DNA from: Escherichia coli
Lineage (GTDB): Bacteria > Pseudomonadota > Gammaproteobacteria > Enterobacterales > Enterobacteriaceae
NCBI RefSeq assembly: GCF_030013595.1
Contig: NZ_CP122768.1
Strand: one strand, 5' to 3'
DNA length: 64,000 nt
The notes under the pieces are model-generated. The model was not told the origin of the DNA, searched no databases, and saw only the letters and a list, made by a program, of their open reading frames with translations. Made by a program: the position numbers and the translations under genes. Shown here one piece after another: positions 1 through 26,887 of this stretch. Within the stretch, counting starts at the first letter, position 1, and each line of letters begins with the position of its first letter.

Positions 1-232
1 AGCGGCGGCAAAGTGGCAGCAGCTACAACGCGGAGCCGCAGCGTTCTCCATCACATTGGCACGTGGACGCGCAGAACTCTACCCCGAAATGCATGGCACG
101 GTAACAGGCTTTAAAAGCGAGATTGATAATCAGGACTGGATTATTGCGAAAGCCGAGCACACCATTGATAACAGCGGCTTTACCACGCAGCTTGAGCTTG
201 AGGCAAAAATCCCGGAATGGATAGCAGAATGA
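1..232 (+). CDS. 3' fragment of a phage late/tail gene, probably P2 gpD-like (runs off window start)
   Basis: Open frame from window start to TGA at 230-232 (..FTTQLELEAKIPEWIAE*); plus-strand, immediately upstream of an ogr-like gene as in P2 (D then ogr). Identification from position and weak sequence memory only. Confidence 0.4.
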   Translation, partial: AAAKWQQLQRGAAAFSITLARGRAELYPEMHGTVTGFKSEIDNQDWIIAKAEHTIDNSGFTTQLELEAKIPEWIAE

Positions 233-396
233 GACTCTTAAATGTATTAGTCCAGACACGTACTAGCGGGCTAAACGGCACAGTCTTATCTGACCATCTG
301 CCCCTGACACAGAGCAGACGGTCCTTGATCTTACCCACTAATAATGGACGCGCGACTAATATAATTTATTGCTTTTTATTTATACCTCACTGAGAT

Positions 397-1032
397 TTAG
401 CGAGCTAATATATTCAAAGAATTTAACAATTGAGTGTCGAGTGTTTCAGTTGCAGGAATCGGTAATCCATTCGCAATGCGGTAATTTTTCACAGACAGCC
501 TTGTGGATGGCCCCATTATGCCGTCAATATTTCCGTTATAAAATCCCCTGTCCAGCAATGCGAACTGAACTCGCATAATCAATCGCTTACGTTTCTCTGC
601 ATCAGAAGCAAGCCCATTACTCGTACGGTTAACCTCTGAAGTTCCAACAGAACTCGTGTTAGTGGTTCTATTATTATCGTTAGAACGAAGTGCACGCACC
701 GAGGAAGAGGACGATGAGGAACTTGCACCTGAACTTGAAGAACCAGATGAACTTGGTGAGCTGTATGTTTTTGGATAATAGGGGGTACTTCCACCATAGT
801 ATCCACCACCTGATGAGGATCTATGAGAGCTATGGCTCCTATGAGAACTATGGCTTCGATGCCCTGCGATATAAAATGGGACTTCCGTGTTAAGTGGAGC
901 TATCACTAAATCATGCTCATTAAGAGTCATACCAGGTAAATCACTCGCTCCTGTAGATGAATCGCTTGCCCATACAGAATTGTTGAGAGCCAAAAATCCC
1001 GGAAGTAGAGCAGCAAAATTAAACTTTTTCAT
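397..1032 (-). CDS. hxsA: HxsA-type His-Xaa-Ser repeat protein (signal peptide, tandem H-x-S triplets, Ser/Gly/Tyr-rich tract, C-terminal peptidoglycan-binding domain)
   Basis: Translation from MKKFNFAALLPGFLALNNSVWA (Sec-like signal) contains HRSHSSHRSHSSHRS, then SSPSSSGSSSSGASSSSSSSS, then a PG_binding_1-like C-terminus (LLDRGFYNGNIDGIMGPSTRLSVKNYRIANGL). Start ATG overlaps upstream gene stop (ATGA). Confidence 0.8.
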   Translation of the reverse strand: MKKFNFAALLPGFLALNNSVWASDSSTGASDLPGMTLNEHDLVIAPLNTEVPFYIAGHRSHSSHRSHSSHRSSSGGGYYGGSTPYYPKTYSSPSSSGSSSSGASSSSSSSSVRALRSNDNNRTTNTSSVGTSEVNRTSNGLASDAEKRKRLIMRVQFALLDRGFYNGNIDGIMGPSTRLSVKNYRIANGLPIPATETLDTQLLNSLNILAR

Positions 1033-2141
1033 AAAATTGGTCTCGGTGATTGATGAAAACGGCCTTTTGAGGAACTGAAATAGCCAGCACAGGAAGGCTT
1101 CTGAGTACATTCATCACATTCTTTTGGATAGTAATTTTTCCAATCAGAGATCGACTGAACAGCAAGCTCCCTAGCCCTTTCAGGAAGATAACACAAAGGA
1201 TAATTAAAAATTGTCAGAGGTATGCCTGACCTGTATGCAGCGTCTATGGCAGAGATTATTTTCTCACTATAACTACTGTGATCAATGAAGATGGTGGACC
1301 AGTTTTTTCGTGCCCAACCGATAGGCTCCAACCCCATAAGGGAAATCTGATTGATGTTGGAGAACACACGGCCAGCGAATTCTACGATATCATCCAATTC
1401 GGTATAGTTAGCCAGTGTAGGAATAACTCTAAGTTCGATATTAATCCCCAAGTTTCCTGCATTGATTAACCCTTTAACCGTTTCATTAAATGCGCCATCA
1501 CTCCCTACCAGATGATCATGCACAAGTGGTCTTGATGAGTAGAGCGGGATACCAAAGGTGATTTTGATCTTTTTGCTTCGCTTTGCCATTTCCTGTGTAA
1601 AGTTGGTATCAGCAAATTTGCGTCCGTTTGTTAAAACATGTAAAGCAGTATCTGGTGAATTCTCGATGATAAAATCAATGAAGTGAAGGAAGTCATCCCC
1701 ATATAGCAAAGGTTCACCACCGCTGACCCCAACAACTCCGTTCAAGCCAAATGAAGCTATAGCAAGAGCTGATTGGGTAAGTAGCCAGTCATCATTTATT
1801 TTCTTTGGTGGCTGCGAACAAAACAGACACAAGTTATTGCAGCGTTCCGTAACTAAGACAGTATTATGATTGGCTTTGCGTGACAGAATAACGCGTATCA
1901 TATTGCCATTGTTGATTATCCCAATATCTCCATCTTCAATTGACTCAAATAATTCAGTGCTAATAACAGAGAAATCAAAGCATGGTGGAATGGCATCATT
2001 ATTGCCTTCAGCAACTACTAGCAAATTGGGCAAAAAGAATAAAGGGTTCACTGGTTTTTGTTTGCATAACCGATAGAACCCCGTGGGCACGTTCTCTGTA
2101 GAAGCAAAATGAAAGATATCGTTCCTGATAACCTCAGACAT
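1029..2141 (-). CDS. Radical SAM maturase of the His-Xaa-Ser system (HxsB/HxsC-type; which of the two is not resolved)
   Basis: 370 aa ORF with CNNLCLFC (CxxxCxxC radical SAM cluster) and a C-terminal Cys-rich region (CDECTQKPSCAGY); sits between the other rSAM gene and hxsA with overlapping stop/start codons. Confidence 0.8.
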   Translation of the reverse strand: MSEVIRNDIFHFASTENVPTGFYRLCKQKPVNPLFFLPNLLVVAEGNNDAIPPCFDFSVISTELFESIEDGDIGIINNGNMIRVILSRKANHNTVLVTERCNNLCLFCSQPPKKINDDWLLTQSALAIASFGLNGVVGVSGGEPLLYGDDFLHFIDFIIENSPDTALHVLTNGRKFADTNFTQEMAKRSKKIKITFGIPLYSSRPLVHDHLVGSDGAFNETVKGLINAGNLGINIELRVIPTLANYTELDDIVEFAGRVFSNINQISLMGLEPIGWARKNWSTIFIDHSSYSEKIISAIDAAYRSGIPLTIFNYPLCYLPERARELAVQSISDWKNYYPKECDECTQKPSCAGYFSSSKGRFHQSPRPIL

Positions 2142-3522
2142 ATGCCCATCCTTTTAGCATCTCAGCCTTCGAACCACCCTCTGAGATGCAGTTCATCAGA
2201 TACCTGAACATCCCCTTGTGATATTGACAAAACGTTGAACGACTCCTATCACCGACAGGCTCACCCTGTACACTTATGTTCTGGCATGGATCTGAACCAC
2301 AAAATGGTTGATATGCACATGTATCACAACCTGGCAGAGCAAAATTGAACGATGAACTCAATACTGCGTTATAGTAAGGACTATCAGAAAATGATAGCGT
2401 CTTAACTTCACCCGCACTGAACTCCGTTTCAGGATTCACCTTCTGCAACATACGGCTCTCATCGCTACCATATACTCGACCGTCATAATTGAAAAGAATA
2501 CTGTTAAGCACGACTCCACTTGGAGACTTTAAATCCGCATAACCACTAAAACCGGGATTGAAGATCCTTTTCAGATGAATGGAGGCCGAATGTTCCACAA
2601 CCCTTATCCCTTCATTATTAATCTTAAGGATTTCATCTATCAACGAGGCATAGAAGCTGAAGTATTCGTCCATAGAAAAGGTGAAAGAAGCTTTTTGTGC
2701 AAACCCATAGGGACTAACAGGTCGGATAAACATGTCCTTGAGACCAAGAGACAAGTGAGCCTGAACAATCGATTCAGGACGTCTGATAAGCTCTTTAGTA
2801 ACTGTAGTAACCGTTGCAACGCGGCCAGCACCTAAAGAGTGTTTGATAGCCTCTACCCCTGACACTGTTCTACTGTACGCAAGCCCACGACCAAGAATTC
2901 GATTACTGTTGTGAACAACTTCCTCACCATCAAGCGACACAGAGAACGTTATGTTCCGGTCTCTCGACCATTCAATCATATCCTCATTCAAGACAGACAG
3001 ACTTGATGCCACCACCATCTCAAAATTGGTTCTTCCCAGCGTTTCAGCACATTGATCATAGATGCTCTGAATTAAATCAAACCGCAAGAGAGGCTCCCCA
3101 CCCTGTATCTCTATTTTGTAAGGTGGCGTTGATAGTTTTTTAATAGCCGAAATAATATCGGGGATGAGCTCAGGATTTAGGTCGTAACCTGAGGCATTAA
3201 CAGAAGCTCTACTAACCTGGCAATACTTGCATGTATGGTCACAACGTAATGTGGGTACAATCATGAAAATTGGCCTGACAGCCAGTTCATTCATCAATCG
3301 TTTTGCAAAAGCAGAACTTAAAGCATAGGGAGTTATAGCAGATGAGCTTTCACTGGTTATGAAAAGCTTACTTTCTAGCACGTTTGATTGCTCCGAACTA
3401 ATTCGCTCATCAGAAAGATCAATAAGGTCTTGCTCACCAATGAAATGATGAAAACCTGCAAGGTTGCTTATAAACACCTGTCCATTAGGCAATCTGTCAA
3501 AATTAAATGGCATCAATTCCAT
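2134..3522 (-). CDS. Radical SAM/SPASM-type maturase of the His-Xaa-Ser system (HxsB/HxsC-type)
   Basis: 462 aa ORF with CDHTCKYC radical SAM motif and C-terminal auxiliary-cluster cysteines (CDTCAYQPFCGSDPCQ...FCQ); stop overlaps next gene start by 8 nt; start overlaps hxsD stop (TAATG). Confidence 0.8.
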   Translation of the reverse strand: MELMPFNFDRLPNGQVFISNLAGFHHFIGEQDLIDLSDERISSEQSNVLESKLFITSESSSAITPYALSSAFAKRLMNELAVRPIFMIVPTLRCDHTCKYCQVSRASVNASGYDLNPELIPDIISAIKKLSTPPYKIEIQGGEPLLRFDLIQSIYDQCAETLGRTNFEMVVASSLSVLNEDMIEWSRDRNITFSVSLDGEEVVHNSNRILGRGLAYSRTVSGVEAIKHSLGAGRVATVTTVTKELIRRPESIVQAHLSLGLKDMFIRPVSPYGFAQKASFTFSMDEYFSFYASLIDEILKINNEGIRVVEHSASIHLKRIFNPGFSGYADLKSPSGVVLNSILFNYDGRVYGSDESRMLQKVNPETEFSAGEVKTLSFSDSPYYNAVLSSSFNFALPGCDTCAYQPFCGSDPCQNISVQGEPVGDRSRSTFCQYHKGMFRYLMNCISEGGSKAEMLKGWAYV

Positions 3523-3836
3523 TATGAAAGCCTCTCATCAACACTGCGAAGCACTTTATGGACAATAGAGTCTCTCAACGCCCCTGTTTTATGCTGTAGC
3601 TTTTCTCGCAAAGAGTAATCATTAAGCAGCCTATCGAATTCATAAAGGAATTTGGGATTATCGTTTTCAAAAGAGATTATCCAGTGGGAAACGTCTTCAT
3701 GGAGTTTCCATCGAGTAAGCGGAGTCATCCAATATAGACTATTGCGTATAACCCATTCAGAATATAGTTCTTTCTCAAACACTCTTTCGCTCATTGCAAT
3801 TATCTTCCAATACAAATATTCATGATCAGCAACCAC
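3522..3836 (-). CDS. hxsD: HxsD-type small protein carrying the LLNDYxLRE signature
   Basis: 104 aa ORF containing FDRLLNDYSLREKLQ; first gene of the four-gene minus-strand operon. True start may be an internal Met (MSERVF). Confidence 0.75.
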   Translation of the reverse strand: MVADHEYLYWKIIAMSERVFEKELYSEWVIRNSLYWMTPLTRWKLHEDVSHWIISFENDNPKFLYEFDRLLNDYSLREKLQHKTGALRDSIVHKVLRSVDERLS

Positions 3837-3871
3837 TTTAAAGCGGATTTTTCCTATGGCAACAATAATAT

Positions 3872-3974
3872 AACATATCCATAGATATGTTACAGATGCC
3901 TTGTTTCCCGTTGACTAATACATCACAACGTTAGTAATGGCTATCACAATTGTGAACTTCCACTTTTCACACAA
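3872..3974. promoter_or_regulatory. Divergent hxsD/ogr control region with two dyad-symmetric elements
   Basis: AACATAT-N6-ATATGTT palindrome at 3872-3891 and TGTGAA-N9-TTCACA dyad at 3954-3974, both in the 210-bp gap between divergent hxsD and ogr starts. Confidence 0.3.
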
Positions 3975-4046
3975 GACAAGCTGTTAATTGGAATCTGTAT
4001 CAGTACAACTTAGAATATCGGAAGCACCACAGTAAGGGAGGTCGCT

Positions 4047-4307
4047 ATGTTCCGTTGTCCGCTTTGTGGCGCATCCGCCCGAATCCGCACCAGTCGTCCG
4101 GAAAATGATTCAAACACCGTGCGGCAAAAGTATTACCAATGTAACAACCTAGAATGCGGCGTATGCTTCTCAACACTGGAAGCTTTCCATAAATTCACAT
4201 CAAAACACGCCTCCGGCGCTCACTCTTCAGAAGGTATCCCGTGGCATGAACTGCCAGCTTCACACAAAGGAAACAATCAGATGAGTTTGCCCTTACCTCA
4301 AAATTAA
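4047..4307 (+). CDS. ogr: Ogr/Delta-family zinc-finger late-gene transcription activator
   Basis: MFRCPLCGASARIRTSR...YYQCNNLECGVCF matches the P2 Ogr pattern (MFHCPLC..ARTSR...YHQCQNVNCSATF); C-terminally extended relative to P2 Ogr. Confidence 0.75.
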   Translation: MFRCPLCGASARIRTSRPENDSNTVRQKYYQCNNLECGVCFSTLEAFHKFTSKHASGAHSSEGIPWHELPASHKGNNQMSLPLPQN

Positions 4308-4367
4308 CAGGCAGAATTGCCGGAGTAACAAAAAAGAGATAGATTACGCGCGGGTGCCTTTCGGCTG

Positions 4368-4631
4368 ATGGTCGGAGGGAATACCCGAAGGCCAGATGTG
4401 GAAAGGCCCCGGAAAACATTTCTGTTTAACCGAGGCCCTAACCGCATTACCTTGACAAGTGAAAGGTTAGCGCCTCTCCGGAAAAGGAGCAAGTGCTATG
4501 TCGCAAAAATCGCTTACGGCCATCATGTTCTGCGTGACGGCAATCCTCATCATCTGGATGTTGCACGGTTCGCTGTGCGAAATACGGATGAGATTCTGGG
4601 GAGCGGAGTTTGCGGCGTTCTTACAGTGTAA
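4368..4631 (+). CDS. mok-like reading frame overlapping hok (translational coupling frame of a hok/sok locus)
   Basis: 87-codon ORF in a different frame that starts upstream of and overlaps the hok-like frame, the arrangement typical of mok. Confidence 0.4.
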   Translation: MVGGNTRRPDVERPRKTFLFNRGPNRITLTSERLAPLRKRSKCYVAKIAYGHHVLRDGNPHHLDVARFAVRNTDEILGSGVCGVLTV

Positions 4632-4638
4632 GCAGTAA
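4498..4638 (+). CDS. hok: Hok/Gef-family type I toxin, 46 aa
   Basis: ATG at 4498 preceded by GGAGCA; peptide MSQKSLTAIMFCVTAILIIWMLHGSLCEIRMRFWGAEFAAFLQCKQ has one hydrophobic helix and the Hok-type C-x-T...SLCEIR motif; the 5' element GGGTGCCTT (4352-4360) is complementary to AAGGCACCC (4695-4703), resembling tac/fbi pairing. Confidence 0.7.
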   Translation: MSQKSLTAIMFCVTAILIIWMLHGSLCEIRMRFWGAEFAAFLQCKQ

Positions 4639-4724
4639 GGAAACCGCGACGGGGGAGCAATCCCCCGTCAATCGGTTGCCAGGGTAAGGTCGATAAGGCA
4701 CCCTATCTCACAGACATGAACAAC

Positions 4725-4760
4725 AAACCCGCAACGTAAAAACTGCGGGTTTTCTTTTTG
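4725..4760 (+). terminator. Rho-independent terminator downstream of hok
   Basis: aaacccgcaacgtaaaaactgcggguuu hairpin followed by a T-run. Confidence 0.6.
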
Positions 4761-4902
4761 GTGTCCTTACTGACTTGAAACGGTGATCAGACTATAAGAC
4801 AAAGCCCACAATGTAGCGGGCTTACTCCCCTCTCCCTCCACTGAATGTGGACACATGGTGGAACGAAGATATATAAAACATTATAAATCAATCGGTTACT
4901 GA

Positions 4903-4928
4903 AAGAAAAAAGGCCGCAGAGCGGCCTT
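4903..4928 (-). terminator. Rho-independent terminator ending the minus-strand lambdoid gene set
   Basis: aggccgcagagcggcct hairpin with an A-run on plus strand (T-run on minus strand) immediately 3' of the ORF ending at 4949. Confidence 0.55.
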
Positions 4929-4948
4929 TATGGTTTATTGACAATTGA

Positions 4949-5164
4949 TTAAGACGTGTGGCACTTATTGGCACACCAATAGCAACCATTCACCCGGGAA
5001 TATCCTTTGGCCTTTGCCTCTGTTACCGCCGAAGAACAATCACTATAGTAACCAAGGTAATCGCGGTTAGCTACAGCAGGAAGATATGAACATTCCTCAG
5101 CATGCACCTCATGATCGCCATTGCTCTGAGCATTTTTGTTCACGTAATAGTGTTTAAAAACCAT
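4949..5164 (-). CDS. Hypothetical small Cys-rich phage protein
   Basis: 71 aa ORF, terminator immediately downstream; no family recognised. Confidence 0.4.
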   Translation of the reverse strand: MVFKHYYVNKNAQSNGDHEVHAEECSYLPAVANRDYLGYYSDCSSAVTEAKAKGYSRVNGCYWCANKCHTS

Positions 5165-5287
5165 TGTATAACTCCATGTTGACGCTGATATTCAGCATTA
5201 ACATGCTATATCACCAATTACACAAACATAAGCTTGTTATTTCAATTAGTTGATAACGATCACCACTGAACTTTGGCCTTGCGAAAT

Positions 5288-5497
5288 TCAAATGTTTTTC
5301 TGACTATTATTGGGCCGATAAACAGATATTATTTGAGCGTTTTGGTTCATTACATAAGCAATATCTCCATCTTTCAGAATGACTTTCCCATCCTTTCCCG
5401 ATACGGCAATACTCCGCTGCTCAGGATGATAGCCAATGCTACGCCCGCAATGGATCTCTTCCCCACCATTTTGAGACATGACTTTTACAGTTAACAT
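5288..5497 (-). CDS. Hypothetical small phage protein
   Basis: 69 aa ORF; no family recognised. Confidence 0.35.
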   Translation of the reverse strand: MLTVKVMSQNGGEEIHCGRSIGYHPEQRSIAVSGKDGKVILKDGDIAYVMNQNAQIISVYRPNNSQKNI

Positions 5498-5584
5498 TTT
5501 TCTGCTCCTATTTAGATGCCCTTTCCATCCGGGCCACTGTTCAAAGTAAATTTAGATTCAACAATATTCTGCTCTTACAGGCGA

Positions 5585-5767
5585 TCAGTTCTGCATACAC
5601 TGCCGAACACCGTCGACAATTTCACAGACCTGAGAAGCTGTATCGAAAAGCTGGCGCGCCTTATCCAGGCTGACGCATCCCACCAGGAAAAAAGGCACCA
5701 GTATCGCTACCAGTGCCCATTTCGCCGCCGTTCGCGGCATTCTGTGTGTCCAGTGTTTTCGCTTCAT
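5585..5767 (-). CDS. Small predicted lipoprotein (possible o-spanin or exclusion lipoprotein)
   Basis: MKRKHW... with hydrophobic signal and lipobox LVGC; lies downstream of the lysis cassette. Confidence 0.4.
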   Translation of the reverse strand: MKRKHWTHRMPRTAAKWALVAILVPFFLVGCVSLDKARQLFDTASQVCEIVDGVRQCMQN

Positions 5768-6266
5768 CTCACTATCCACCAATCAATCCGGATAAGCTCA
5801 ATACTCGCCAGGCGGTGGAAATGAAAATGGCAACCAACATTGCTGAAAATGAAAGGCCAACAACCACACAGAGAATTCGCGCCAGTTTTATAATGCTATC
5901 TGACATATTTACCCCTGCCCCACTTACGATTTCACAGCAATGAGCAATTTTGCCATCCCATACAGCATCGGAGACACAGCGATACCGACCGCCACCCACT
6001 TAATGGCAAAAGCCACCGCTCTGCTGATGTCATCAGTTACAGGCGCTTTCAATTCAAGGCCGTTTTTCATAGTCAACCTCAACAGAATTAGTTTATACTT
6101 CCTCATGTTCTCCTTTGCCTTACCCAAGGCCAGAAACAGAAAACCCCGGACTGTTACCGCAGCCGGGGTTTTTGCTATCTGATGCTATGCCCCTTACTTT
6201 CGCTCATCGTAGCCCCAGAAAAGAGCCTGCATGAGTTGAGGGTGTTCAGCACTTCAGTGTCAGTTT

Positions 6267-6812
6267 TTAAACCACCACGCGCTCTTTCATCCAGCCATAG
6301 ACAAACGACTCATTGGCCTCGCGTTTCTCTGCCAGCTCCAGATAACGCTCGCCCTGCGTACAGTTCAGGGCTTTCACCAGTACCAGTTCACCATCCCTGC
6401 TGCGATTTTTCAGATATGCCCGTAATGCATTAAGAGTACGCGGCCCGATGCGTCCATCAGCATCCATATCCGGATAGAGTTTCCCGCGCAGGTTGAAAAC
6501 GTTCAGCCAGCGCTGAAGCATTCTGGACGCCACAGTTGGCCCCATGTTCACGCCCGTATCGCACAACTCTGCGGCAATATCCGGAGACAGGTCCTCAACC
6601 TGGTCGAATCGTGGTCCGTACCAGTAGTCCGCCTCGAGTATTTCCAGCGCCTGCCCACGCGTCAGGTCACGCATATCGCCCTGATAACCGTGTGCACGGG
6701 CAACTTTTTCAGTGATGCCCCATTTAGTCGGACCACCTTTATCATCCGGGTGATTGACGTAACCGCCCTCTTTTCCCAGAATTTCGTCAAAAATTTCATC
6801 TTTCGACTTCAT
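6267..6812 (-). CDS. Endolysin, GH108-like muramidase with peptidoglycan-binding region
   Basis: MKSKDEIFDEILGKEGGYVNHPDDKGGPTKWGITE N-terminus typical of GH108 lysozyme-like phage proteins; follows two holin-like membrane genes. Confidence 0.65.
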   Translation of the reverse strand: MKSKDEIFDEILGKEGGYVNHPDDKGGPTKWGITEKVARAHGYQGDMRDLTRGQALEILEADYWYGPRFDQVEDLSPDIAAELCDTGVNMGPTVASRMLQRWLNVFNLRGKLYPDMDADGRIGPRTLNALRAYLKNRSRDGELVLVKALNCTQGERYLELAEKREANESFVYGWMKERVVV

Positions 6813-6813
6813 A

Positions 6814-7104
6814 TCAGCGCCTTCGTAATACAAGGATTTTTGATACGTTCCCGCGTGCTCGTATCACCAGCACGCAGAACACCAGGTTAATCAGGACGAC
6901 CAGCCAGTTACCGGGAGGAAAGCGACCACACAGATAACAAAGCGGCGCAAAGGCATAAAGCAGCATCAGCAGCCAGGCCAGCCACGACATCAGCGGTTTA
7001 TGTCTCGACTCACCACGACGATAAAAAAAGAGCGTCAGCACGATAACCGTGCTTAACACCACATTCAGTAATCCGGGAAGGTTACTTAACATTACCGCCT
7101 CCAC
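6814..7104 (-). CDS. Small multi-pass membrane protein, holin/antiholin-like
   Basis: 96 aa, strongly hydrophobic segments, wedged between holin-like gene and endolysin. Confidence 0.45.
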   Translation of the reverse strand: MEAVMLSNLPGLLNVVLSTVIVLTLFFYRRGESRHKPLMSWLAWLLMLLYAFAPLCYLCGRFPPGNWLVVLINLVFCVLVIRARGNVSKILVLRRR

Positions 7105-7471
7105 CCCGCAGACGGGAGAACAGCCCGGATACCAGCGATGCGATATCCTGCTGGTGGATGAATGAGAGAATCTTCACCGACACCACCGATACCAGTACCG
7201 CACAAAGCGCGTCGAGAGATGTGCTGTGGAGATTCAATTTTTCGACCAGCCAGGACGCAAGGACATCCGCCCCCAGCACGCCAACAATGAACGACACCAG
7301 AAAATGCGCCGCCACACGCCAGACAGAAATCACCTGTGGCATCGTGGCCACAAACAACGCCCCGGCAAACGCGCCAAACACAATCCCGAAATCCGTCCCG
7401 GTAAACAGCCCGAATACCGTCGCCCCGCCGAGCGCCACAGCAGTGCTGGAACCGGATAAGGGTTCAGACAT
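7082..7471 (-). CDS. Holin-like membrane protein
   Basis: Start MSEPLSG at 7471 with GGAGAA RBS; Gly/Ala-rich transmembrane segments; first gene of the lysis cassette. Confidence 0.5.
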   Translation of the reverse strand: MSEPLSGSSTAVALGGATVFGLFTGTDFGIVFGAFAGALFVATMPQVISVWRVAAHFLVSFIVGVLGADVLASWLVEKLNLHSTSLDALCAVLVSVVSVKILSFIHQQDIASLVSGLFSRLRGGGGNVK

Positions 7472-7670
7472 ATTTATTCTCCTGTAAATAAAAAGGACCA
7501 TCAGCGGCCCCGTAACTGACATTTTATTAACGTTTGAAGATATGGATATTTATCAGGGTTTACCGTTTTCTGAACCCTGGATATGTTAAGCATTCAGCCC
7601 GCCAGTGGTGGGACGCTGGCTCATCATAGAGAAAGAGGGATGGCTGATTACCTCTGATCAGGGAAATCAC

Positions 7671-7940
7671 ATGCAGTTTTTACATAAAAGAATGCATTTA
7701 AATGCAGGAGATACGGTAGTGGTTGACTGCTCTCATCAGTGCAATATTTTGCTGATGACAGATACAAACTTTAATAACTACCGCAACGCAAGAAGCTTTC
7801 ATCATCACGGTGGTGGCGGTTTTTTTCAGAGATTACCGGCCCACCTTCATGTACCGCATTCAGGTTACTGGAATATTACAATTGATTTAGGAGGCGGAAG
7901 TGCAGCTATTCGGCACTCCATTTCCGTCATCCCAGCATAG
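7671..7940 (+). CDS. Hypothetical phage protein, antisense to the late operon
   Basis: ATG at 7671 with AGGGA RBS (the listed ORF begins at a GTG at 7605); hairpin plus T-run downstream at about 8196-8235. Confidence 0.4.
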   Translation: MQFLHKRMHLNAGDTVVVDCSHQCNILLMTDTNFNNYRNARSFHHHGGGGFFQRLPAHLHVPHSGYWNITIDLGGGSAAIRHSISVIPA

Positions 7941-8298
7941 CAACTCGCCTTTAGCCTGAGTAAATGCGTCCTCAAGGACGGCAACGAGTCGCAGTTGCGT
8001 GCCGTCCTTTACACAGCGTGTGCAGGCAATACCTTCAGAACTTTCATTATGCCGAGCTCATACAATTTCACCATTTTGTTCAACTACAACGCTCATAATT
8101 TTCTTACACTTTTTTAATAAACCACACCAATAACAACCATCACCGATACCTTTTGTATGCTGTTATTTTGCATTACGGTGTAACGGCAAGAGCCCCCTCC
8201 CCGCCCTGAAAGGCTCTGTGTTTTTGATGTGCGCCTGATGTGGCTCAGATACAAAAAAGCTCGCAGTAGCGAGCTAACAGAAAATATGAAGCATGTTT

Positions 8299-8577
8299 TT
8301 ATCCACGAAGTATGACGTTGAATTCATCCATACCGACACGGCTGGCTATCTCGTTGTATTCCTCAACAAGAGCCAGCAATTCTGAATTAGCAGCCATGAA
8401 CTCTTCAAAAACCTTATGGATGGCATCACTGTTTAATAAAACAATGTTCTTTCCTGAAAGGCGATCAGGGGTAGAAAATATAACTGTCAAACGACTAAAG
8501 GCCCTGGCTCGTTCAGCATTAACATCCTCAATACGCTGCAACAAGCTGGAGCACCTGGAAATATCATCAATATTCAC
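8299..8577 (-). CDS. Hypothetical protein (cargo between Q and lysis genes)
   Basis: 92 aa ORF followed by a minus-strand hairpin terminator (gctcgcagtagcgagc with T-run) near 8254-8280. Confidence 0.4.
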   Translation of the reverse strand: MNIDDISRCSSLLQRIEDVNAERARAFSRLTVIFSTPDRLSGKNIVLLNSDAIHKVFEEFMAANSELLALVEEYNEIASRVGMDEFNVILRG

Positions 8578-9095
8578 TCTACTCCTGCCATCTGGATGAT
8601 AATCATTTCACGGAGAGAAGCACTCAGAAGTACCACTGAAGTATAGCTGGTGACCAGCTACTTACACATCTATTGCCATCCTGCTGATGATAAGTCGACA
8701 TTAGCCCTTCTGTCTATAAACGAAACAAAGGATAAGTTCAGGTTTTAAACACACTGCCAGGATAAAGTATTGTATACAGTATAGAAGAGCGTTATTGAAT
8801 GACATAAAAAACCAGACCTAATCCCTTATCCGGAAGATATATCAAATAAACGGGGAAAATGTATTAAGATGGCGTTCCTATTCTCTCCATCCCTGATGTC
8901 CACGTAACTCGTTATAGAATCAGAACGCCATCTGAATACACACAAAAAAGCTGACTTCACACCCTCCAGATGTGTGAACGCAGTGCCCGACCACGTGCTT
9001 TCGCAACCAGCACAAATCATTTTAAAGCATCGAAAAACGATCAGAATATATCAGAACTTCCTAGCATCCTGCTTGGCTTAGATATTAATCGAGGA

Positions 9096-10181
9096 TTAGC
9101 TCCTGTTCTTATCTAATTGTGCATTTCGCAATTTATCGTTCAGCACCAATATTTCACCAACTGTTTGTTCAAAACGCCCGGACTCAAGTTCAACCCCAAT
9201 CGTGCGACGCCCCAATCCCATTGCTGCTTTTATTGTTGCCCCCGATCCCATAAAAAAATCCGCAACCACATCCCCCGGACGACTGCTGGCAGAAATTATC
9301 TGACGCAACATATCCGCCGGTTTTTCGCAGGGATGCTTACCCGGATAATACTGCACGGGCTTATGCGTCCAGACGTCCGTATAAGGAACGGCGGCCGATA
9401 CAGAAAAATAACGCCGCAGAGATTTGTATTCCTCAAGCAGACTGGCATATTGCCGGTTCAGTTCACTGTATGTGCTGACCAGTTGCTGGTGTGGCGTTGC
9501 CAGCTCCCCACGCTGGTGCTTTTCTTCTGCAACACACGCGAACAGCGCCTGCAGTTTTCTGTAATCAGCTTCGTTCGGTAACTGCCACTGACAGGTACCA
9601 AACCAGTGCGACACCATGTTTTTCTTTCCGGTGGCTTCCGCTATCTGTTTGGACGTTATCCCCAGTGATTCACGCGCATCACGGAAGTAAGAAATCAGCG
9701 GGGCCATGACGTGTTGTTTAAGCTCGCGCTCCTTTGCCGCATAGCCATCATTTTTTGGCTGGTATGGCCCCTGATAATGTTCGGCAAACAGAATGCGCTC
9801 TGTTGCCGGGAAATACGCCCGCAGGCTTTCTTTGTTGCACCCGTTCCAGCGTCCGGATGGCTTCGCCCAGATAATGTGGTTCAGCACATTAAAGCGCTCA
9901 CGCATCATGATTTCGGTGTCAGATGCCAGGCGATGACCACAGAACAGGTAGAGACTTCCGGCAGGTTTCAGTACCCGCCAGAACTGAGCCAGACACTGAT
10001 CCAGCCATTTCAGGTAATCATCGTCGCCCTTCCACTGGTTATCCCAGCCCTCGGGCTTCACTTTAAAGTATGGCGGGTCTGTGACTATCAGATCGACAGA
10101 GTTTTCCGGTAAGGTCTGGATAAATTCCAGGCAATCAGCGTTGATTAACTCACAACTGGATATTTTTACAGTATCAACCAT
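9096..10181 (-). CDS. Orphan DNA N6-adenine (or N4-cytosine) methyltransferase, beta class
   Basis: LIVTDPPYF (motif IV) precedes DFFMGSGATIKAA (motif I); no adjacent restriction endonuclease gene. Confidence 0.75.
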   Translation of the reverse strand: MVDTVKISSCELINADCLEFIQTLPENSVDLIVTDPPYFKVKPEGWDNQWKGDDDYLKWLDQCLAQFWRVLKPAGSLYLFCGHRLASDTEIMMRERFNVLNHIIWAKPSGRWNGCNKESLRAYFPATERILFAEHYQGPYQPKNDGYAAKERELKQHVMAPLISYFRDARESLGITSKQIAEATGKKNMVSHWFGTCQWQLPNEADYRKLQALFACVAEEKHQRGELATPHQQLVSTYSELNRQYASLLEEYKSLRRYFSVSAAVPYTDVWTHKPVQYYPGKHPCEKPADMLRQIISASSRPGDVVADFFMGSGATIKAAMGLGRRTIGVELESGRFEQTVGEILVLNDKLRNAQLDKNRS

Positions 10182-10331
10182 AGATCAATAAGCACTTCTC
10201 TGATAGGCTCATACCGCTTTTGCGCAAAGCAGATGGGCCTGAGGTTTGCTTGTGACCCTAACGCATGAGCAGATGGCTGGCAGGTGCCGCTAACACCCAC
10301 CAGCCGCCCATTACCACAAATGAAAAAACCT

Positions 10332-10529
10332 TCACTGCGGAAGGCGTCTGTAACAACCGAACTGATAATCTGCCAGACCCGCCATAACAAGCTGGGTCAG
10401 TATTAACTGACAGCGTTCGCGTGAAAGGTAAGTATTCTGCGCAATTTCCCCAACTGTTGCCGGTTCAGTGACGCTTAATTCATTAAACACCACTCTGGCT
10501 GTTTCGGTCATATCCTGCTGTTTTAGCAT
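10332..10529 (-). CDS. Small hypothetical protein, possibly DNA-binding
   Basis: 65 aa ORF upstream of the methyltransferase. Confidence 0.3.
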   Translation of the reverse strand: MLKQQDMTETARVVFNELSVTEPATVGEIAQNTYLSRERCQLILTQLVMAGLADYQFGCYRRLPQ

Positions 10530-10702
10530 GTCTTTTTCTCTTTATTGGTTAACGTGACATACCAATAACTCTTGTCGAAAAAGCCAGCAAGCTGAAAGAC
10601 CGGTATTAATAACCACCTGCACATTTTATGTACCGAACCATTTTTCTGGCATAAAAAACCTCTCAATGGCGGGCGGTAAAAATCTTTGTTACTCAAGAAA
10701 TT

Positions 10703-11416
10703 TTAACGCACTCTGACTGTATTAATTTCAAAATCATTAATATTTCCGCTATTAAATATAACGAATTTCTTACCCCCACTCCTGTATGATTTCGATAACA
10801 CCAGACGATCATCATAACGCGCAATAATGTAATACCATACATTCTCATAGTGGATCGCCTGATATTCCCTCTTAAACTGTGGTTTGTACCAACCGGCAAT
10901 AAGAGAGAATGCCCAGAAATAAATCATAAACCCAGCCATCATGAACTCAATTCGGTGATGACGAATAAAAGACATTTCCGAAAAACATTTGACTGAAACA
11001 AGTCTTCTTCCAAACCTGACAAAAAGCGTGATTGTAAAGGCAGCAAGAATGCAGAAAATCAGTACATCTGGCTCAACATGCTGATGGATTACCGAAAACT
11101 CCAGAACAGGTGGAATAAAAAGCAGCAATATCGCGAGAAAAAGCCGGATAAAACTCAAATTTTGTATATTGCGCTTTTGTTTTATGCCCAAAAAGAAAAC
11201 AATACCAACTCCCCATCCAATAAGGAATATAACGATAACTGTCACAGCATAAAACAAACTTCGTGCTACATCATCGACACCAGCCCCGACAACCCACCAT
11301 GGAAAGCCATAGTAAAATGAAGTACCCCATCCATAGAAATAAGCGCTTCCCCATCCTAGACAGCCCATATAAGCAACAAAAAGTGAAGAGTTTCTGAGCA
11401 GAGCACTGTCATCCAT
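10703..11416 (-). CDS. Multi-pass membrane protein of unknown function (first gene after pR'/tR')
   Basis: 237 aa with about four hydrophobic helices and an approx 50 aa soluble C-terminus; lies in a visibly AT-rich segment. Confidence 0.5.
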   Translation of the reverse strand: MDDSALLRNSSLFVAYMGCLGWGSAYFYGWGTSFYYGFPWWVVGAGVDDVARSLFYAVTVIVIFLIGWGVGIVFFLGIKQKRNIQNLSFIRLFLAILLLFIPPVLEFSVIHQHVEPDVLIFCILAAFTITLFVRFGRRLVSVKCFSEMSFIRHHRIEFMMAGFMIYFWAFSLIAGWYKPQFKREYQAIHYENVWYYIIARYDDRLVLSKSYRSGGKKFVIFNSGNINDFEINTVRVR

Positions 11417-11554
11417 AGTAACACCATTAACAACTCAAAAATATCAACACATATTACATAACAAATTGGATTCCATGCAGTCAAGGGGCGTCATTGATGG
11501 AGAAAGTATTGGCACAATCATCATCACGTTTAATGTCTATGCCATTTTTTTGGG

Positions 11555-11583
11555 GATAAAAAAACCCGCTCGGTCACGGGTTT
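11555..11583 (-). terminator. tR'-like Rho-independent terminator
   Basis: aaacccgtgaccgagcggguuu hairpin followed by T-run on the minus strand, about 50 nt downstream of the putative pR'. Confidence 0.55.
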
Positions 11584-11637
11584 TACTAGCTTTGCCATCA
11601 CGTATAAAAACGGCAAAATATCAGATTCACACGAAAT

Positions 11638-11666
11638 ATATGCCTTTTTATCTACTTTTGCAATAC
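11638..11666 (-). promoter_or_regulatory. pR'-like late promoter immediately downstream of Q
   Basis: Minus-strand TTGCAA, 17 nt spacer, TATATT; positioned between Q stop (11671) and the terminator. Confidence 0.45.
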
Positions 11667-11670
11667 TTTG

Positions 11671-12342
11671 CTATGAAAATGCCGCCTTTTGTTTTGAACG
11701 TGTTCCCTCCACCAACAATAAAGCTTCACCATCCAGCCGATGAAAAATGTGTTTCATTGCAACCCAGTGACCAGTAAATGTCTTGGACCAGTTTTTGGTT
11801 GTTACTCCCACCAGTAACGCCAGTTCCTGGTATTCGTAACCTTCCCCACCAAAAAGCTCAGCTTTTACCGCCTGCGCCGCCAACCAGATCAACGTCTTCA
11901 GGCGCACCAGAGTTTTTCCTGCAATTTTTCTGGTACCGGATTGAGCATTAAATTCAGTCCACGCCCACTGCGTTATCGCGATCTGATGCTCCCAGCAAAT
12001 GCTACCGCTGTAACACCACAGCAGCCAGGCTTTATGATGTTCTTCAAGAGACAGAACGGCGCGTCGCCATGATGATGTCGAAAACTCAACCGGACTGACC
12101 AGGGCAATTGATGAACCTTTCACCAGCGATTGCTTTCCCGGGATCGGTGGATTATCCAGCGTTACTATTTTTCCAGTGACCTTATCGCGGTACCGGATTT
12201 TTTTACGTCTGTAACGCCCTGTATTGAACATGGCATTCTCCTGCCAGGCTTCAAGCTGACCTTTTGTTGCTCCACTCAAATCAGCGGTGGCGATCATGAG
12301 CTGCTCACGCACAAACTGTAAATACTGGTTATTCATGCGCAC
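11671..12342 (-). CDS. Probable late antiterminator (Q-like)
   Basis: 223 aa ORF directly upstream of a promoter/terminator pair and downstream of rusA, the canonical Q position; family assignment by context only. Confidence 0.45.
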   Translation of the reverse strand: MRMNNQYLQFVREQLMIATADLSGATKGQLEAWQENAMFNTGRYRRKKIRYRDKVTGKIVTLDNPPIPGKQSLVKGSSIALVSPVEFSTSSWRRAVLSLEEHHKAWLLWCYSGSICWEHQIAITQWAWTEFNAQSGTRKIAGKTLVRLKTLIWLAAQAVKAELFGGEGYEYQELALLVGVTTKNWSKTFTGHWVAMKHIFHRLDGEALLLVEGTRSKQKAAFS

Positions 12343-12692
12343 TCCAGTTCTGTGATTTTTATCCCCAGCCGACCACCGGGAACAACCTGACCGCGCATAA
12401 TATTAACTTCATCAAACTGCTCATCGTCGATAAGCAGTCCCGCATGTGTCAGCGCATCCAGTGGTGCCTTCAGGATATTGTCCAGGTCGCGGCGGCGCTT
12501 ATCCGGTGGCTCTGCAATAATTTTTATTGCCAGCCTTCCGGACAGGTTTAATTTCAGTCGCTGCTGGCGAACAATAAGCGCCACATCACGGCGATAACGC
12601 TCACCGGCTTTTGATACAAAATATGTGCTGCCACGACGTCGCCAGTAGGTGTTCACCGTTGGCGGGTAAGGCAAAACAAATTCTATCCCCAT
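12333..12692 (-). CDS. rusA: RusA-family Holliday junction resolvase
   Basis: 119 aa; PYPPTVNTYWRRRG...RRRDLDNILKAPLDALTHAGLLIDD matches RusA conserved motifs. Confidence 0.85.
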   Translation of the reverse strand: MGIEFVLPYPPTVNTYWRRRGSTYFVSKAGERYRRDVALIVRQQRLKLNLSGRLAIKIIAEPPDKRRRDLDNILKAPLDALTHAGLLIDDEQFDEVNIMRGQVVPGGRLGIKITELECA

Positions 12693-12704: not shown

Positions 12705-13754
12705 TTATCCGAGTACGCCTGTTGCAAAGGCGTGATCAAGAAAACGAAAAATTAAATCAACCTGAGAACCATGTTTTTCTTCGAATGCCTGCGGATCCGC
12801 ATGAAGCTCGTTGTGATGCTCCCGACACAGCGGCAACGTAAAAATATCGTGGGCCTTTGTTCCCATCCCTCCCTGACCGTGACCAATCAGGTGATGGGGA
12901 TCGTCGGCTGGCTTACCACAACACGCACACGGCTGTGTCTTCACCCAGCGTGTGTATTTCTCATTTACCCAACGGCGACGTTTAGGTCGCTTCATGAAAG
13001 ATTCCGGAGACTCAGGATCAACGGCAATGCTGACCACCGTCTTTTCCTGTGGTGTGTTCTGTTGCTGGTGGACGTGAGGCAACGGCGCAAGATTTTTTGT
13101 GCGCTGCTTCAGTATGCTGGTGGCGGTCTGCTCTCCCGGTACGATGTCGCTTTCGCGGTAAACCGTGCGGATTTTTTCCGCACGTAATCCCAGAGAACGA
13201 CGTAATACTGCCTCCGGTAGCGCGTCCGCCACCTGATTGCAGACCGCCCACCAGGATAATTCAGCCAGCGATAATTCCCGTTCCTGTGCACCACTTATTG
13301 CGTGACGTATGACGTCAATCATCCAGGCTGTCAGATTTTGTTGAGCAAGCTGCCCGAGTGATTCGGATGTCTGGTCGCGCAGCTGGTTGTCGCAGTGCCA
13401 GCACAACAACATTGCGCCGGTACCGTAACGATGTATGACGGTTTCACTGTGGTGATAGTCTCCATGAGGCCACTGGCAGGATTTAACATGACGCAGGAGC
13501 CAGTCAGACAGTGCGCCAGCGCCGCCAGCAGCACGAATCACACGCTCATCGCTGAAAAACGGCAGCAATGTTTTATCTTCCGCCAGCGGCTGGCGAACGG
13601 CAGGAACGACTCCGGACGGCATACCGCGCATGTTTTTCGGTTCCGGCTCCACCAGCACCCTGCCGTTATGGAATACCTGCATGGATTCACGCCCCGGCTT
13701 AAGGACCACCAGCCCGAGTTCCGGTACCGGAACAGGTCGAAGTAATACCCGCAC
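12705..13754 (-). CDS. DUF968-like lambdoid nin-region protein with C-terminal Cys/His cluster
   Basis: 349 aa; C-terminus CACCGKPADDPHHL...CREHHNELH; family assignment from memory of YdfU-like prophage proteins. Confidence 0.5.
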   Translation of the reverse strand: MRVLLRPVPVPELGLVVLKPGRESMQVFHNGRVLVEPEPKNMRGMPSGVVPAVRQPLAEDKTLLPFFSDERVIRAAGGAGALSDWLLRHVKSCQWPHGDYHHSETVIHRYGTGAMLLCWHCDNQLRDQTSESLGQLAQQNLTAWMIDVIRHAISGAQERELSLAELSWWAVCNQVADALPEAVLRRSLGLRAEKIRTVYRESDIVPGEQTATSILKQRTKNLAPLPHVHQQQNTPQEKTVVSIAVDPESPESFMKRPKRRRWVNEKYTRWVKTQPCACCGKPADDPHHLIGHGQGGMGTKAHDIFTLPLCREHHNELHADPQAFEEKHGSQVDLIFRFLDHAFATGVLG

Positions 13755-25647: not shown

Positions 25648-25899
25648 ATGTACGAATTAACTCTATCGCCAGCAGAGATTCAAGAGATCACGAAATACGA
25701 GCGATACACAAAACAGCAACACCAGTTAAGGCTGCACGGTATCCCATTTGTAATCGGTCCTAAAAACGAACCAATAGTTCTTCGCAGGGATATTCCACAC
25801 GGACTGACTACGATGCCAAAAGCACCTGAACTGGTTTCCGCTGAACCCGATTTTGAGGCGCTGAACAATGGGAAGACCAAGAAAAAACAAAAAAGATAA
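25648..25899 (+). CDS. Probable excisionase / small recombination directionality protein
   Basis: 83 aa ORF overlapping the integrase start by 32 nt; assignment by position. Confidence 0.4.
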   Translation: MYELTLSPAEIQEITKYERYTKQQHQLRLHGIPFVIGPKNEPIVLRRDIPHGLTTMPKAPELVSAEPDFEALNNGKTKKKQKR

Positions 25900-26887
25900 T
25901 GCACTACCACCGCGTGTTAGATCGAATGGTTACAGTTACGTATGGAAACCCGAAGGAAGCACAAGAACTATAGGGCTCGGAAGAGTGCGGGAAACCAGCG
26001 TAGCTAAAGTCTGGCAAAATTATGAGCTGGAAAAAGCAAAACTCCACAACATAATGACAGTAGCTAAATTATGGCACATGTTTATGGACTCCCCTGCATT
26101 TACAGAACTGGCCCCCCGAACCCAAAAAGATTATCGGCAACATCAAAGGGCATTGTTGGCAGTATTCGGAAAAGTGCTTGCTGATAATGTAAAAATTGAA
26201 CAGGTAAGAATTTTCATGGATAAGCGAGGACTTGAGAGCAAGACCCAAGCAAACCATGAACTGGCAAGTCTGAGCCGTGTATACGGATGGGGATATGAGC
26301 GTGGGTATGTGAAAAATAATCCATGCAAAGGAGTCAGAAAATTCACACTTAAAGCCCGTACTGTTTACATCACCGATGAACAGTATGCTGCAATATATGC
26401 GGAAGCAATTCCACAGTTACGTATTGCAATGGAGATATCCTATCTTTGTGCGGCAAGGCTCGGTGATGTACTCGAGCTGAAATGGCAGGATATTATGGAG
26501 AAAGGGATTTACATTGAGCAAAACAAGACCGGCACTAAACAAATCAAGGAATGGTCTCCGCGATTACGTACGGCGATCCAGTTAGCCCGAAATGTATCTT
26601 CCGGCACATGCGAGTATGTGATCAACACAACCAAAGGCGGGAAGGTAATAGCCAAGACGCTGAACAACTGGTGGAATCAGGCTAAACGTGCAGCCGAGCA
26701 AAAAGCCGGCGTTCCGTTTGGGTGCAACTTCCATGACATAAAAGCCAAAGGGATTTCAGATTACGAAGGCAGCAGTCGCGACAAACAAATTTTCAGTGGA
26801 CACAAAACAGAAAATCAGGTGTTGATTTACGATCGTAAAACCAAAATAACACCAACACTGGATTTGCCGCTTGTGGTCAGTAAGTAG
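25868..26887 (+). CDS. Tyrosine-type site-specific integrase
   Basis: 339 aa; catalytic-region motifs (LCAARLGD, HDIKAKG, LIYDRK); adjacent to tRNA-derived att. Confidence 0.85.
   Translation: MGRPRKNKKDNALPPRVRSNGYSYVWKPEGSTRTIGLGRVRETSVAKVWQNYELEKAKLHNIMTVAKLWHMFMDSPAFTELAPRTQKDYRQHQRALLAVFGKVLADNVKIEQVRIFMDKRGLESKTQANHELASLSRVYGWGYERGYVKNNPCKGVRKFTLKARTVYITDEQYAAIYAEAIPQLRIAMEISYLCAARLGDVLELKWQDIMEKGIYIEQNKTGTKQIKEWSPRLRTAIQLARNVSSGTCEYVINTTKGGKVIAKTLNNWWNQAKRAAEQKAGVPFGCNFHDIKAKGISDYEGSSRDKQIFSGHKTENQVLIYDRKTKITPTLDLPLVVSK

Follow-up and report, generated by a model that had tools for sequence, protein, structure and literature searches.

The stretch of DNA analysed here (64,000 nucleotides of Escherichia coli contig NZ_CP122768.1, assembly GCF_030013595.1, one strand; hereafter the window) contains, close to its left end, four genes of the His-Xaa-Ser (HXS) type: hxsD, hxsB, hxsC, and hxsA. 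When their sequences are set beside the experiments published on a homologous operon, it is highly probable that the locus is a complete HXS anti-phage system, to all appearances functional, whose 3.5-kb cassette occupies the slot between the tail gene D (gpD) and ogr of a P2-like prophage. The HXS locus is already known, its genes being named by RefSeq and its function having been published in 2026; what the window offers is a clean example of HXS riding a P2-like prophage.

The family assignment was made with the NCBIfam profiles TIGR03976–TIGR03979 against the NCBI curated equivalog cut-offs. All four proteins score far beyond chance: HxsA 161.1 bits with TIGR03979 (cut-off 121.65), HxsC 398.4 bits with TIGR03977 (cut-off 267.9), HxsB 558.9 bits with TIGR03978 (cut-off 370), and HxsD 90.6 bits with TIGR03976 (cut-off 50). 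The HxsA-D identity proposed in an earlier sequence-only reading of this DNA is thus upheld by all four curated models, and RefSeq naming agrees, since identical operons are annotated there as hxsA-D. The variant models HxsA2, HxsA3, and HxsC4 give scores far under their cut-offs for the window proteins. The genes are arranged as hxsD-hxsB-hxsC-hxsA in one minus-strand operon with overlapping stop and start codons: hxsD (3522–3794, 90 aa) encodes the small partner protein of HxsC, hxsB (2134–3522, 462 aa) a radical S-adenosylmethionine (SAM) maturase with a C-terminal Cys cluster, hxsC (1029–2141, 370 aa) a second radical SAM maturase, and hxsA (397–1032, 211 aa) the exported effector and substrate. 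An ATGA overlap joins hxsD to hxsB and hxsC to hxsA, and hxsB and hxsC share 8 nt. All four open reading frames (ORFs), described before as overlapping minus-strand genes, are present without frameshift and have lengths equal to those of the RefSeq orthologues. A mechanical ORF scan gives a longer hxsD (GTG at 3836) and a longer hxsA (ATG at 1110), the extra upstream codons of which fall outside the coverage of the family models. The span of 397–3836 proposed for the operon is therefore real as to the operon itself, but its end at 3836 corresponds to the upstream GTG, whereas the start of hxsD is placed at the ATG at 3794 both by the family model and by the orthologues in RefSeq. The GC content of the operon is 41.7%, compared with 48.5% in 1–396, 49.0% in 4047–4935, and 49.4% in the whole window, in keeping with the AT-richness first judged by eye.

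In HxsB, the motif CDHTCKYC provides C94/C98/C101, and C-terminal Cys residues lie at 399/402/408/413/432/445; in HxsC, the motif CNNLCLFC provides C101/C105/C108, and C-terminal Cys residues lie at 342/345/351. Pfam Radical_SAM is matched by both enzymes (HxsB E 6e-10, HxsC E 7.5e-11), so the CxxxCxxC motifs are not frame artefacts, and the two radical SAM enzymes with Cys-rich C-terminal regions recognised from the letters alone are confirmed. HxsC also matches phrog_15140 (E 4e-165), and no solved structure was matched by its sequence. For HxsB, the closest solved structure by sequence is the SCIFF (six cysteines in forty-five) maturase CteB (5wgg, E 8e-6), and weak matches to models of the quinohemoprotein amine dehydrogenase maturase and the anaerobic sulfatase maturase were found. 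HxsD carries LYW at 20–22 and LLNDYSLRE at 56–64, the latter being the LLNDYxLRE signature noticed earlier. Among 41 homologues, L20, Y21, W22, N58, D59, and L62 are invariant, and L56, L57, R63, and E64 are at least 90% conserved. The AlphaFold2 model of HxsD (predicted local distance difference test score 94.5) combines a three-stranded sheet with a short helix and a C-terminal helix of 43 residues, the latter predicted to carry LLNDYxLRE; no informative solved structure was found for HxsD, nor any resemblance to PqqD-type recognition elements.

In HxsA, a signal-like segment (residues 1–22) is followed by residues 23–47, the HxS array, a Gly/Tyr stretch, a Ser-rich linker, and a peptidoglycan-binding domain. 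The 22-residue N-terminus (MKKFNFAALLPGFLALNNSVWA, followed by SD) opens with basic residues, continues with a hydrophobic core, and shows V-W-A at −3 to −1, and it is signal-like by reading of the sequence. The tandem His-x-Ser triplets reported before are five in number (HRS-HSS-HRS-HSS-HRS, residues 58–72), with SHRSS at 69–73. Pfam PG_binding_1 (PF01471) matches residues 154–191 with a modest E of 3e-4, and the same domain is precomputed for many HxsA homologues. This architecture recurs in 106 full-length homologues, in all of which the array starts with HRS and ends with HRS-S-S/A-G; the number of repeats is 4–6 in nearly all of them, five being commonest (five repeats in 67, six in 23, and four in 12).

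The HXS anti-phage system was characterised by Li et al. (Nat Commun 17:3910, 2026; preprint January 2026; PMC13128918). The hxsDBCA operon of E. coli strain MEM (CP012378), cloned on a plasmid with its own promoter, restricts 110 of 113 coliphages, with T4, one other Tequatrovirus, and P1 as the escapers, and all four genes are required for this defence (PMC13128918). Adsorption is unaffected, no abortive-infection collapse occurs, and the entry of T7 DNA is slowed from ~8–12 min to ~30–50 min; the T7 escape mutations lie in the ejectosome proteins gp15 and gp16 (PMC13128918). HxsB, HxsC, and HxsD mature HxsA into a periplasmic effector: HxsA was found processed in the periplasm, with a +8 Da modification placed on SHRSS (PMC13128918). 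Cys-to-Ala substitutions at HxsB C98/C101 or HxsC C105/C108 abolish HxsA processing, and changes at HxsB C399/C402 or HxsC C342/C345 lower it (PMC13128918). In HxsA, the signal peptide, which spans residues 1–22, and the peptidoglycan-binding domain are both needed, residues 23–47 and each HxS repeat are essential, and a truncated HxsA merely placed in the periplasm is insufficient for defence; in HxsD, the LYW and LLNDYxLRE motifs matter, and an HxsC–HxsD complex was reported (PMC13128918). The gene order hxsD-hxsB-hxsC-hxsA is found in 99.6% of systems, and the system is described as typically chromosomal; 23% of hxs operons overlap predicted prophages and 77% lie outside them (PMC13128918). 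HXS has been reported as the first bacterial defence acting on phage DNA ejection and as the first with a protein effector matured by radical SAM enzymes.

These experiments bear out, for the family, the earlier guess of anti-phage defence or superinfection exclusion (PMC13128918), and the accompanying statement that the family has no experimentally established function has been out of date since January–March 2026. A search of PADLOC-DB v2 (2023) returned no Hxs models and only weak generic radical SAM matches to pVip; the library pre-dates the HXS work, and this negative is therefore not evidence against defence. Metal binding or envelope remodelling, offered before as alternatives to defence, are not supported. 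According to such a reading, the operon would make a radical-SAM-modified periplasmic protein with a non-defence role, either a factor that remodels the cell wall or a His-rich protein that binds metal or serves as a redox cofactor, the model for the latter being the small subunit of quinohemoprotein amine dehydrogenase, which is matured by a radical SAM enzyme. Before 2026, when the family was defined only computationally, this was an open reading; the richness of HxsA in His and Ser, its peptidoglycan-binding domain, and the weak matches of HxsB to the two maturase models mentioned above speak in its favour. However, the strong and broad anti-phage phenotype depends on all four genes, on the Cys clusters, and on every HxS repeat (PMC13128918), the contexts of hxs are mobile defence-type loci and not metabolic operons, and no metal-transport or dehydrogenase genes lie near the operon. 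A non-defence role is thus very improbable in our judgement and has already been largely refuted.

The window copy resembles the tested HXS of strain MEM in every respect on which the published mutagenesis bears. Both copies comprise the four families in the D-B-C-A order; the Cys residues of HxsB and HxsC carry identical residue numbers; HxsA has in both cases an N-terminal segment of 22 residues, which reads as signal-like in the window copy, an array of five HxS repeats with SHRSS at its end, and a peptidoglycan-binding domain; and HxsD has LYW and LLNDYxLRE. Every residue mutated in PMC13128918 is present in the window proteins. The window copy is prophage-borne, whereas HXS is described in PMC13128918 as typically chromosomal.

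Several observations weigh against a simple transfer of function from the published system to the window copy. The HxsD numbering of the MEM operon paper is offset by two residues with respect to the window HxsD, and its HxsA numbering runs to residue 214, compared with 211 residues in the window; the MEM operon may be a different allele, strain MEM, which lies outside the genome collection surveyed, not being one of the 45 genomes with the window allele. The modified peptide of the paper (m/z 714.5, 5+) needs ~3559.5 Da, while residues 48–78 of the window HxsA amount to 3380.55 Da, and none of four E. coli HxsA alleles fits the published mass. E. coli hxs alleles diverge by as much as ~28% at the DNA level, and their HxsD proteins by up to 37%. 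Function has been shown in one study, with the operon of strain MEM cloned on a plasmid, and the DNA-binding model draws on a shift assay done in vitro, with alternatives listed by the authors (PMC13128918). The SPASM domain, a search for which had been suggested together with the first reading, was not matched by either enzyme (Pfam-A SPASM, PF13186, no match at E ≤ 10 in HxsB or HxsC). HxsB does align end to end with several SPASM enzyme models and carries a CX2CX5CX4C cluster; judged by this resemblance, it may be SPASM-like, though it is not filed as a SPASM member. Finally, promoter-like matches in the upstream region of the operon are at chance level (12 found compared with 11.5 expected in shuffles). 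Functional equivalence to the published HXS is nevertheless very likely, whichever allele was tested, because the effector/substrate segment of HxsA is effectively identical across the sampled E. coli alleles.

The diversity of hxs was surveyed in 5,426 complete E. coli genomes, 151 of which carry the operon. By DNA identity to the window hxs, the carriers fall into classes of ≥99% (n = 45), 90–95% (n = 35), 80–90% (n = 13), and 60–80% (n = 58), indicating, at the level of sequence, that E. coli holds at least four hxs alleles. One representative of each of the three other alleles was examined: EC4, O55:H7 USDA5905, and H6. In comparison with H6, the most distant allele sampled, HxsB is 75%, HxsC 80%, and HxsD 63% identical. 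The first 99 codons of hxsA (window 736–1032) show 41 nucleotide differences from H6 and 32 from EC4 with zero amino-acid changes, whereas the remaining 112 aligned codons show 32 (H6) and 20 (EC4) amino-acid changes. These 99 codons span the signal peptide, residues 23–47, the HxS array, and the GGGYY stretch; this effector/substrate segment is effectively identical in all three other alleles, save for a 7-residue deletion (aa 24–30) in O55:H7. Such purely synonymous divergence fits strict constraint on the substrate/effector segment of HxsA, in line with the mutagenesis of the paper, and the constrained 99-codon segment should be a useful guide for work on the +8 Da chemistry.

The same data have to be considered when asking whether the window copy could be a silent or decaying passenger, its genes present but unexpressed or inactive in the host. 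Expression signals offer some ground for this suspicion. The conserved region upstream of hxsD (3795–3898, minus strand), which lies within the homology common to island copies of hxs, probably contains the native promoter, and two sigma-70-like hexamer pairs are present upstream of hxsD (3893–3865 and 3862–3835), but they are weak evidence; promoter-like matches are no better than chance, the operon signal in the promoter/terminator scan as a whole was not above chance, and an Rfam search of window 1–12000 gave no match. Several genomes with the same allele (13KWH46, TD225-C4, B1S11, EC21Z-048, and others) have IS2, IS3, or IS4-family insertion sequences (IS) in the operon, and, where a split gene is evident, the insertion falls in hxsB or hxsC; HXS is therefore sometimes inactivated. 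In addition, the end of the P2-like prophage adjoins another prophage in the window, an arrangement found in no complete genome. On the other hand, the four ORFs are intact and of full length, the window allele is kept at 99.7–99.9% identity across 45 complete genomes from diverse hosts and pathotypes, divergence between alleles is purely synonymous in the first 99 codons of hxsA, and the defence phenotype was obtained with the native promoter (PMC13128918). A silent passenger is accordingly improbable, if less so than a non-defence role, and a working HXS system remains our preferred reading.

The window copy is inferred to work like its published E. coli homologue. In the cytoplasm, the radical SAM enzymes HxsB and HxsC, the latter with HxsD bound to it, would act on the precursor HxsA; the +8 Da modification would be put into the last HxS repeat (SHRSS), and N-terminal processing would be driven by the maturases. 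Mature HxsA would then reach the periplasm and be anchored to peptidoglycan by its C-terminal domain, where the basic HxS array is proposed to delay or arrest the entry of incoming phage DNA, with neither a block of adsorption nor killing of the cell. Because a prophage carries it, the window copy would be a broad superinfection-exclusion module protecting both the lysogen and the prophage. The electrostatic DNA-capture step is held with less confidence than the HXS-type function of the window copy, and the authors themselves treat it as one of several options (PMC13128918). It is conceivable, though on balance unlikely, that HXS defends the cell by a different route, in which mature HxsA senses or plugs the trans-envelope channel of the phage, or alters the local peptidoglycan or inner-membrane interface, so that ejection stalls. 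Phage DNA crosses the periplasm in a protein conduit, leaving little free DNA exposed, as was raised by the authors; the T7 escape mutations affect gp15/gp16 and not features of the DNA; the peptidoglycan-binding domain is essential; and truncated HxsA is insufficient even when placed in the periplasm (PMC13128918). However, pull-downs revealed no interaction of HxsA with gp15/gp16, while periplasmic HxsA shifts DNA in vitro (PMC13128918), and the wide range over which the block acts speaks against recognition of one specific protein.

The prophage context of the operon, suggested before from its neighbours, is supported by comparison with related phages and prophages. The 3′ end of gpD, a P2-type tail gene, occupies 1–232 on the plus strand (phrog_12925, tail protein, E 2.4e-34) and is 96% identical in DNA to gpD of phages PhiR44_2 and 500465-2. 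The ogr/Delta-like zinc-finger late-gene activator follows at 4047–4307 on the plus strand (phrog_603, E 3.6e-15); NCBIfam PRK09678 gives 43 bits on this gene, under its cut-off, and the identical gene in RefSeq relatives is named ogr/Delta-like zinc finger family protein. The tail gene and ogr proposed as flanks are thus confirmed, but the description of the former as a fragment is not: the frame of gpD is open from base 2 to its stop at 230–232, so the gene runs off the start of the window, and the fragment is an effect of the window edge, beyond which the body of the prophage is out of view. Window 1–229 and 4006–4713 align to PhiR44_2 1501–1729 and 1740–2447, leaving a slot of ~10 nt in that phage, compared with a 3.8-kb cargo insert (230–4005) in the window, where the prophage is P88-like (Xuanwuvirus/Gemsvirus-type). 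The last gene of the prophage is a hok/gef-family toxin gene (4498–4638, plus strand), called Hok/Gef in relatives and MokW-like in phage records; downstream of it are three terminator-like hairpins (4647–4823), and no Rfam sok or hok RNA match was found in its region at threshold.

Related prophages carry the same block. In O26:H11 str. 11368 and ETEC1730, gpD-hxs-ogr-hok ends a P2-type prophage abutting ihfA, and in the former a complete complement of P2-type head, lysis, baseplate, and tail genes precedes the block. A reading of the O26 arrangement, with its minus-strand tail operon beside a plus-strand gpD, as an inversion that would leave the prophage defective was considered and rejected, since PhiR44_2, 500465-2, and 520873 share the layout. 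An IS66 element is present in or beside gpD in enterotoxigenic E. coli (ETEC) strains. All 45 genomes with the window allele have the gpD-hxs-ogr-hok context, and exactly 45 genomes contain the whole 1–4906 block; the flanks are matched in about 1,600 E. coli genomes. In IMG/VR, prophage contigs of 35–36 kb have the same gpD-hxs-ogr-hok end. Close hxs genes were not found in deposited phage genomes by DNA or protein search, the only annotated hxsC there being that of Leptospira phage LE1 (35% identity); the evidence for prophage carriage is accordingly of two kinds, annotated prophages and contigs in IMG/VR, and does not include an isolated virion. Prophage carriage accounts for a minority of E. 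coli hxs, with 45 of the 151 carriers (30%), near the 23% found in predicted prophages by the paper.

The other copies are found on a different kind of mobile element. All three representatives of the non-prophage alleles lie in islands that are integrated at ssrA and carry an integrase and a relaxase/mobilisation gene; ABC-three-component genes are near hxs in the islands of the two nearer alleles (EC4 and O55:H7). Window 394–3898 is 91.0% (EC4) and 89.7% (O55:H7) identical to the ssrA-island hxs, and window 396–3818 is 72.4% identical to that of H6. In the two nearer islands the homology stops at 394 and 3898, and these borders define a 3.5-kb minus-strand cassette of the four genes with ~100 nt upstream. 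In each ssrA island, a DUF6119/TIGR04141 'sporadically distributed' gene lies 18–68 nt downstream of hxsA; it is not part of the prophage hxs cassette. An IMG/VR metagenome contig has hxsDBCA (5246–8955; HxsC 78% identical) with Gabija directly downstream (GajA E 1e-231, GajB E 1e-284). The context of HXS is thus of the defence type: a variable prophage slot in the window, and ABC-three-component systems or Gabija beside other copies.

The slot itself is variable in isolated P2-like phages, with unrelated cargo of 1.25 kb in 500465-2 and of 0.9 kb in 520873. The genes in question, of unknown function, encode 340 aa on the minus strand (500465-2, 1859–2881 of the compared stretch) and 132 aa on the plus strand (520873, 1909–2307); neither has a PADLOC match, and they are candidate cargo or defence genes. 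It can be proposed, tentatively and at somewhat less than even odds, that the gpD-ogr junction of P88-like P2-type phages is an undescribed defence-cargo hotspot, with HXS moving as a 3.5-kb cassette between this slot and the ssrA-integrated mobilisable islands. If this were true, ~30% of the HXS systems in E. coli would be encoded by phages, as broad modules of superinfection exclusion and not the 'intrinsic bacterial' systems of the paper, and new defence genes might be sought in the unannotated slot genes of 500465-2 (340 aa) and 520873 (132 aa).

To the right of the hok/gef gene, homology to P2-like prophages (O26, ETEC1730) extends as far as 4929, and from 4907 onward the sequence is homologous to an unrelated lambdoid prophage. 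The overlap, 4907–4929, is a 23-nt palindromic GC-rich hairpin (AAAGGCCGCAGAGCGGCCTTT); the terminator scan reports a GC-rich hairpin at 4909–4929 on both strands, which in relatives lies just downstream of ihfA. The P2-like end and the lambdoid segment occur together in 0 of the 5,426 complete E. coli genomes, and in strain EC42405 the lambdoid sequence extends leftward into terminase and head genes that are missing from the window. Two explanations of the junction can be given: a genuine rearrangement involving both prophages, or a join made during assembly at the short palindrome. The lambdoid segment (4930 to ~27000) has no head or tail genes. It includes a GH108 endolysin (6267–6833), holins (6814–7522), a DNA methyltransferase (9096–10181), antiterminator Q (11671–12342), RusA (12333–12692), a DUF968 gene (12705–13754), a RecE-like exonuclease VIII (23110–25581), and a likely integrase (25868–26887). 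The chromosomal genes rlmI, helD, yccS, pqiB, uup, rlmL, and pepN come after it.

Among known systems, the window operon is the classic four-gene form of the HxsA-D family set (TIGR03976–03979), which was defined computationally by Haft and Basu (2011, as cited in PMC9062424). With the radical SAM/SPASM peptide maturases CteB, PapB, and anSME, HXS shares the logic of ribosomally synthesised and post-translationally modified peptides, that is, a precursor, maturases, and a small partner protein, and in alignments the models of PapB, anSME, and CbpB span most of HxsB (E 1e-19 to 4e-14). HXS differs from them in that an exported protein of 211 residues, with a folded domain, takes the place of a short peptide as substrate, and in that two radical SAM enzymes are needed. 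As a phage-encoded function, HXS can be likened to T4 Imm and Sp, which exclude superinfecting phages by blocking DNA entry (as discussed in PMC13128918). However, Imm and Sp are single small proteins of narrow range, whereas HXS acts on 110 of 113 phages and has an effector matured by radical SAM enzymes. The carriage of HXS follows the same principle as the gpA-gpQ (old/tin) hotspot of P2-like phages described by Rousset et al. (2022; PMC9122126), in which an AT-rich defence module in a variable slot protects the lysogen. That paper makes no mention of ogr, gpD, or radical SAM, and the gpD-ogr slot is a cargo site outside the published work on P2 hotspots and in this respect mildly new, as is the proposed passage of the cassette between a P2-like prophage and the ssrA islands. 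The HXS cargo differs from that of gpA-gpQ in its position, as the gpD-ogr slot is at the other end of the prophage, and in its mode of action, a periplasmic block of DNA entry.

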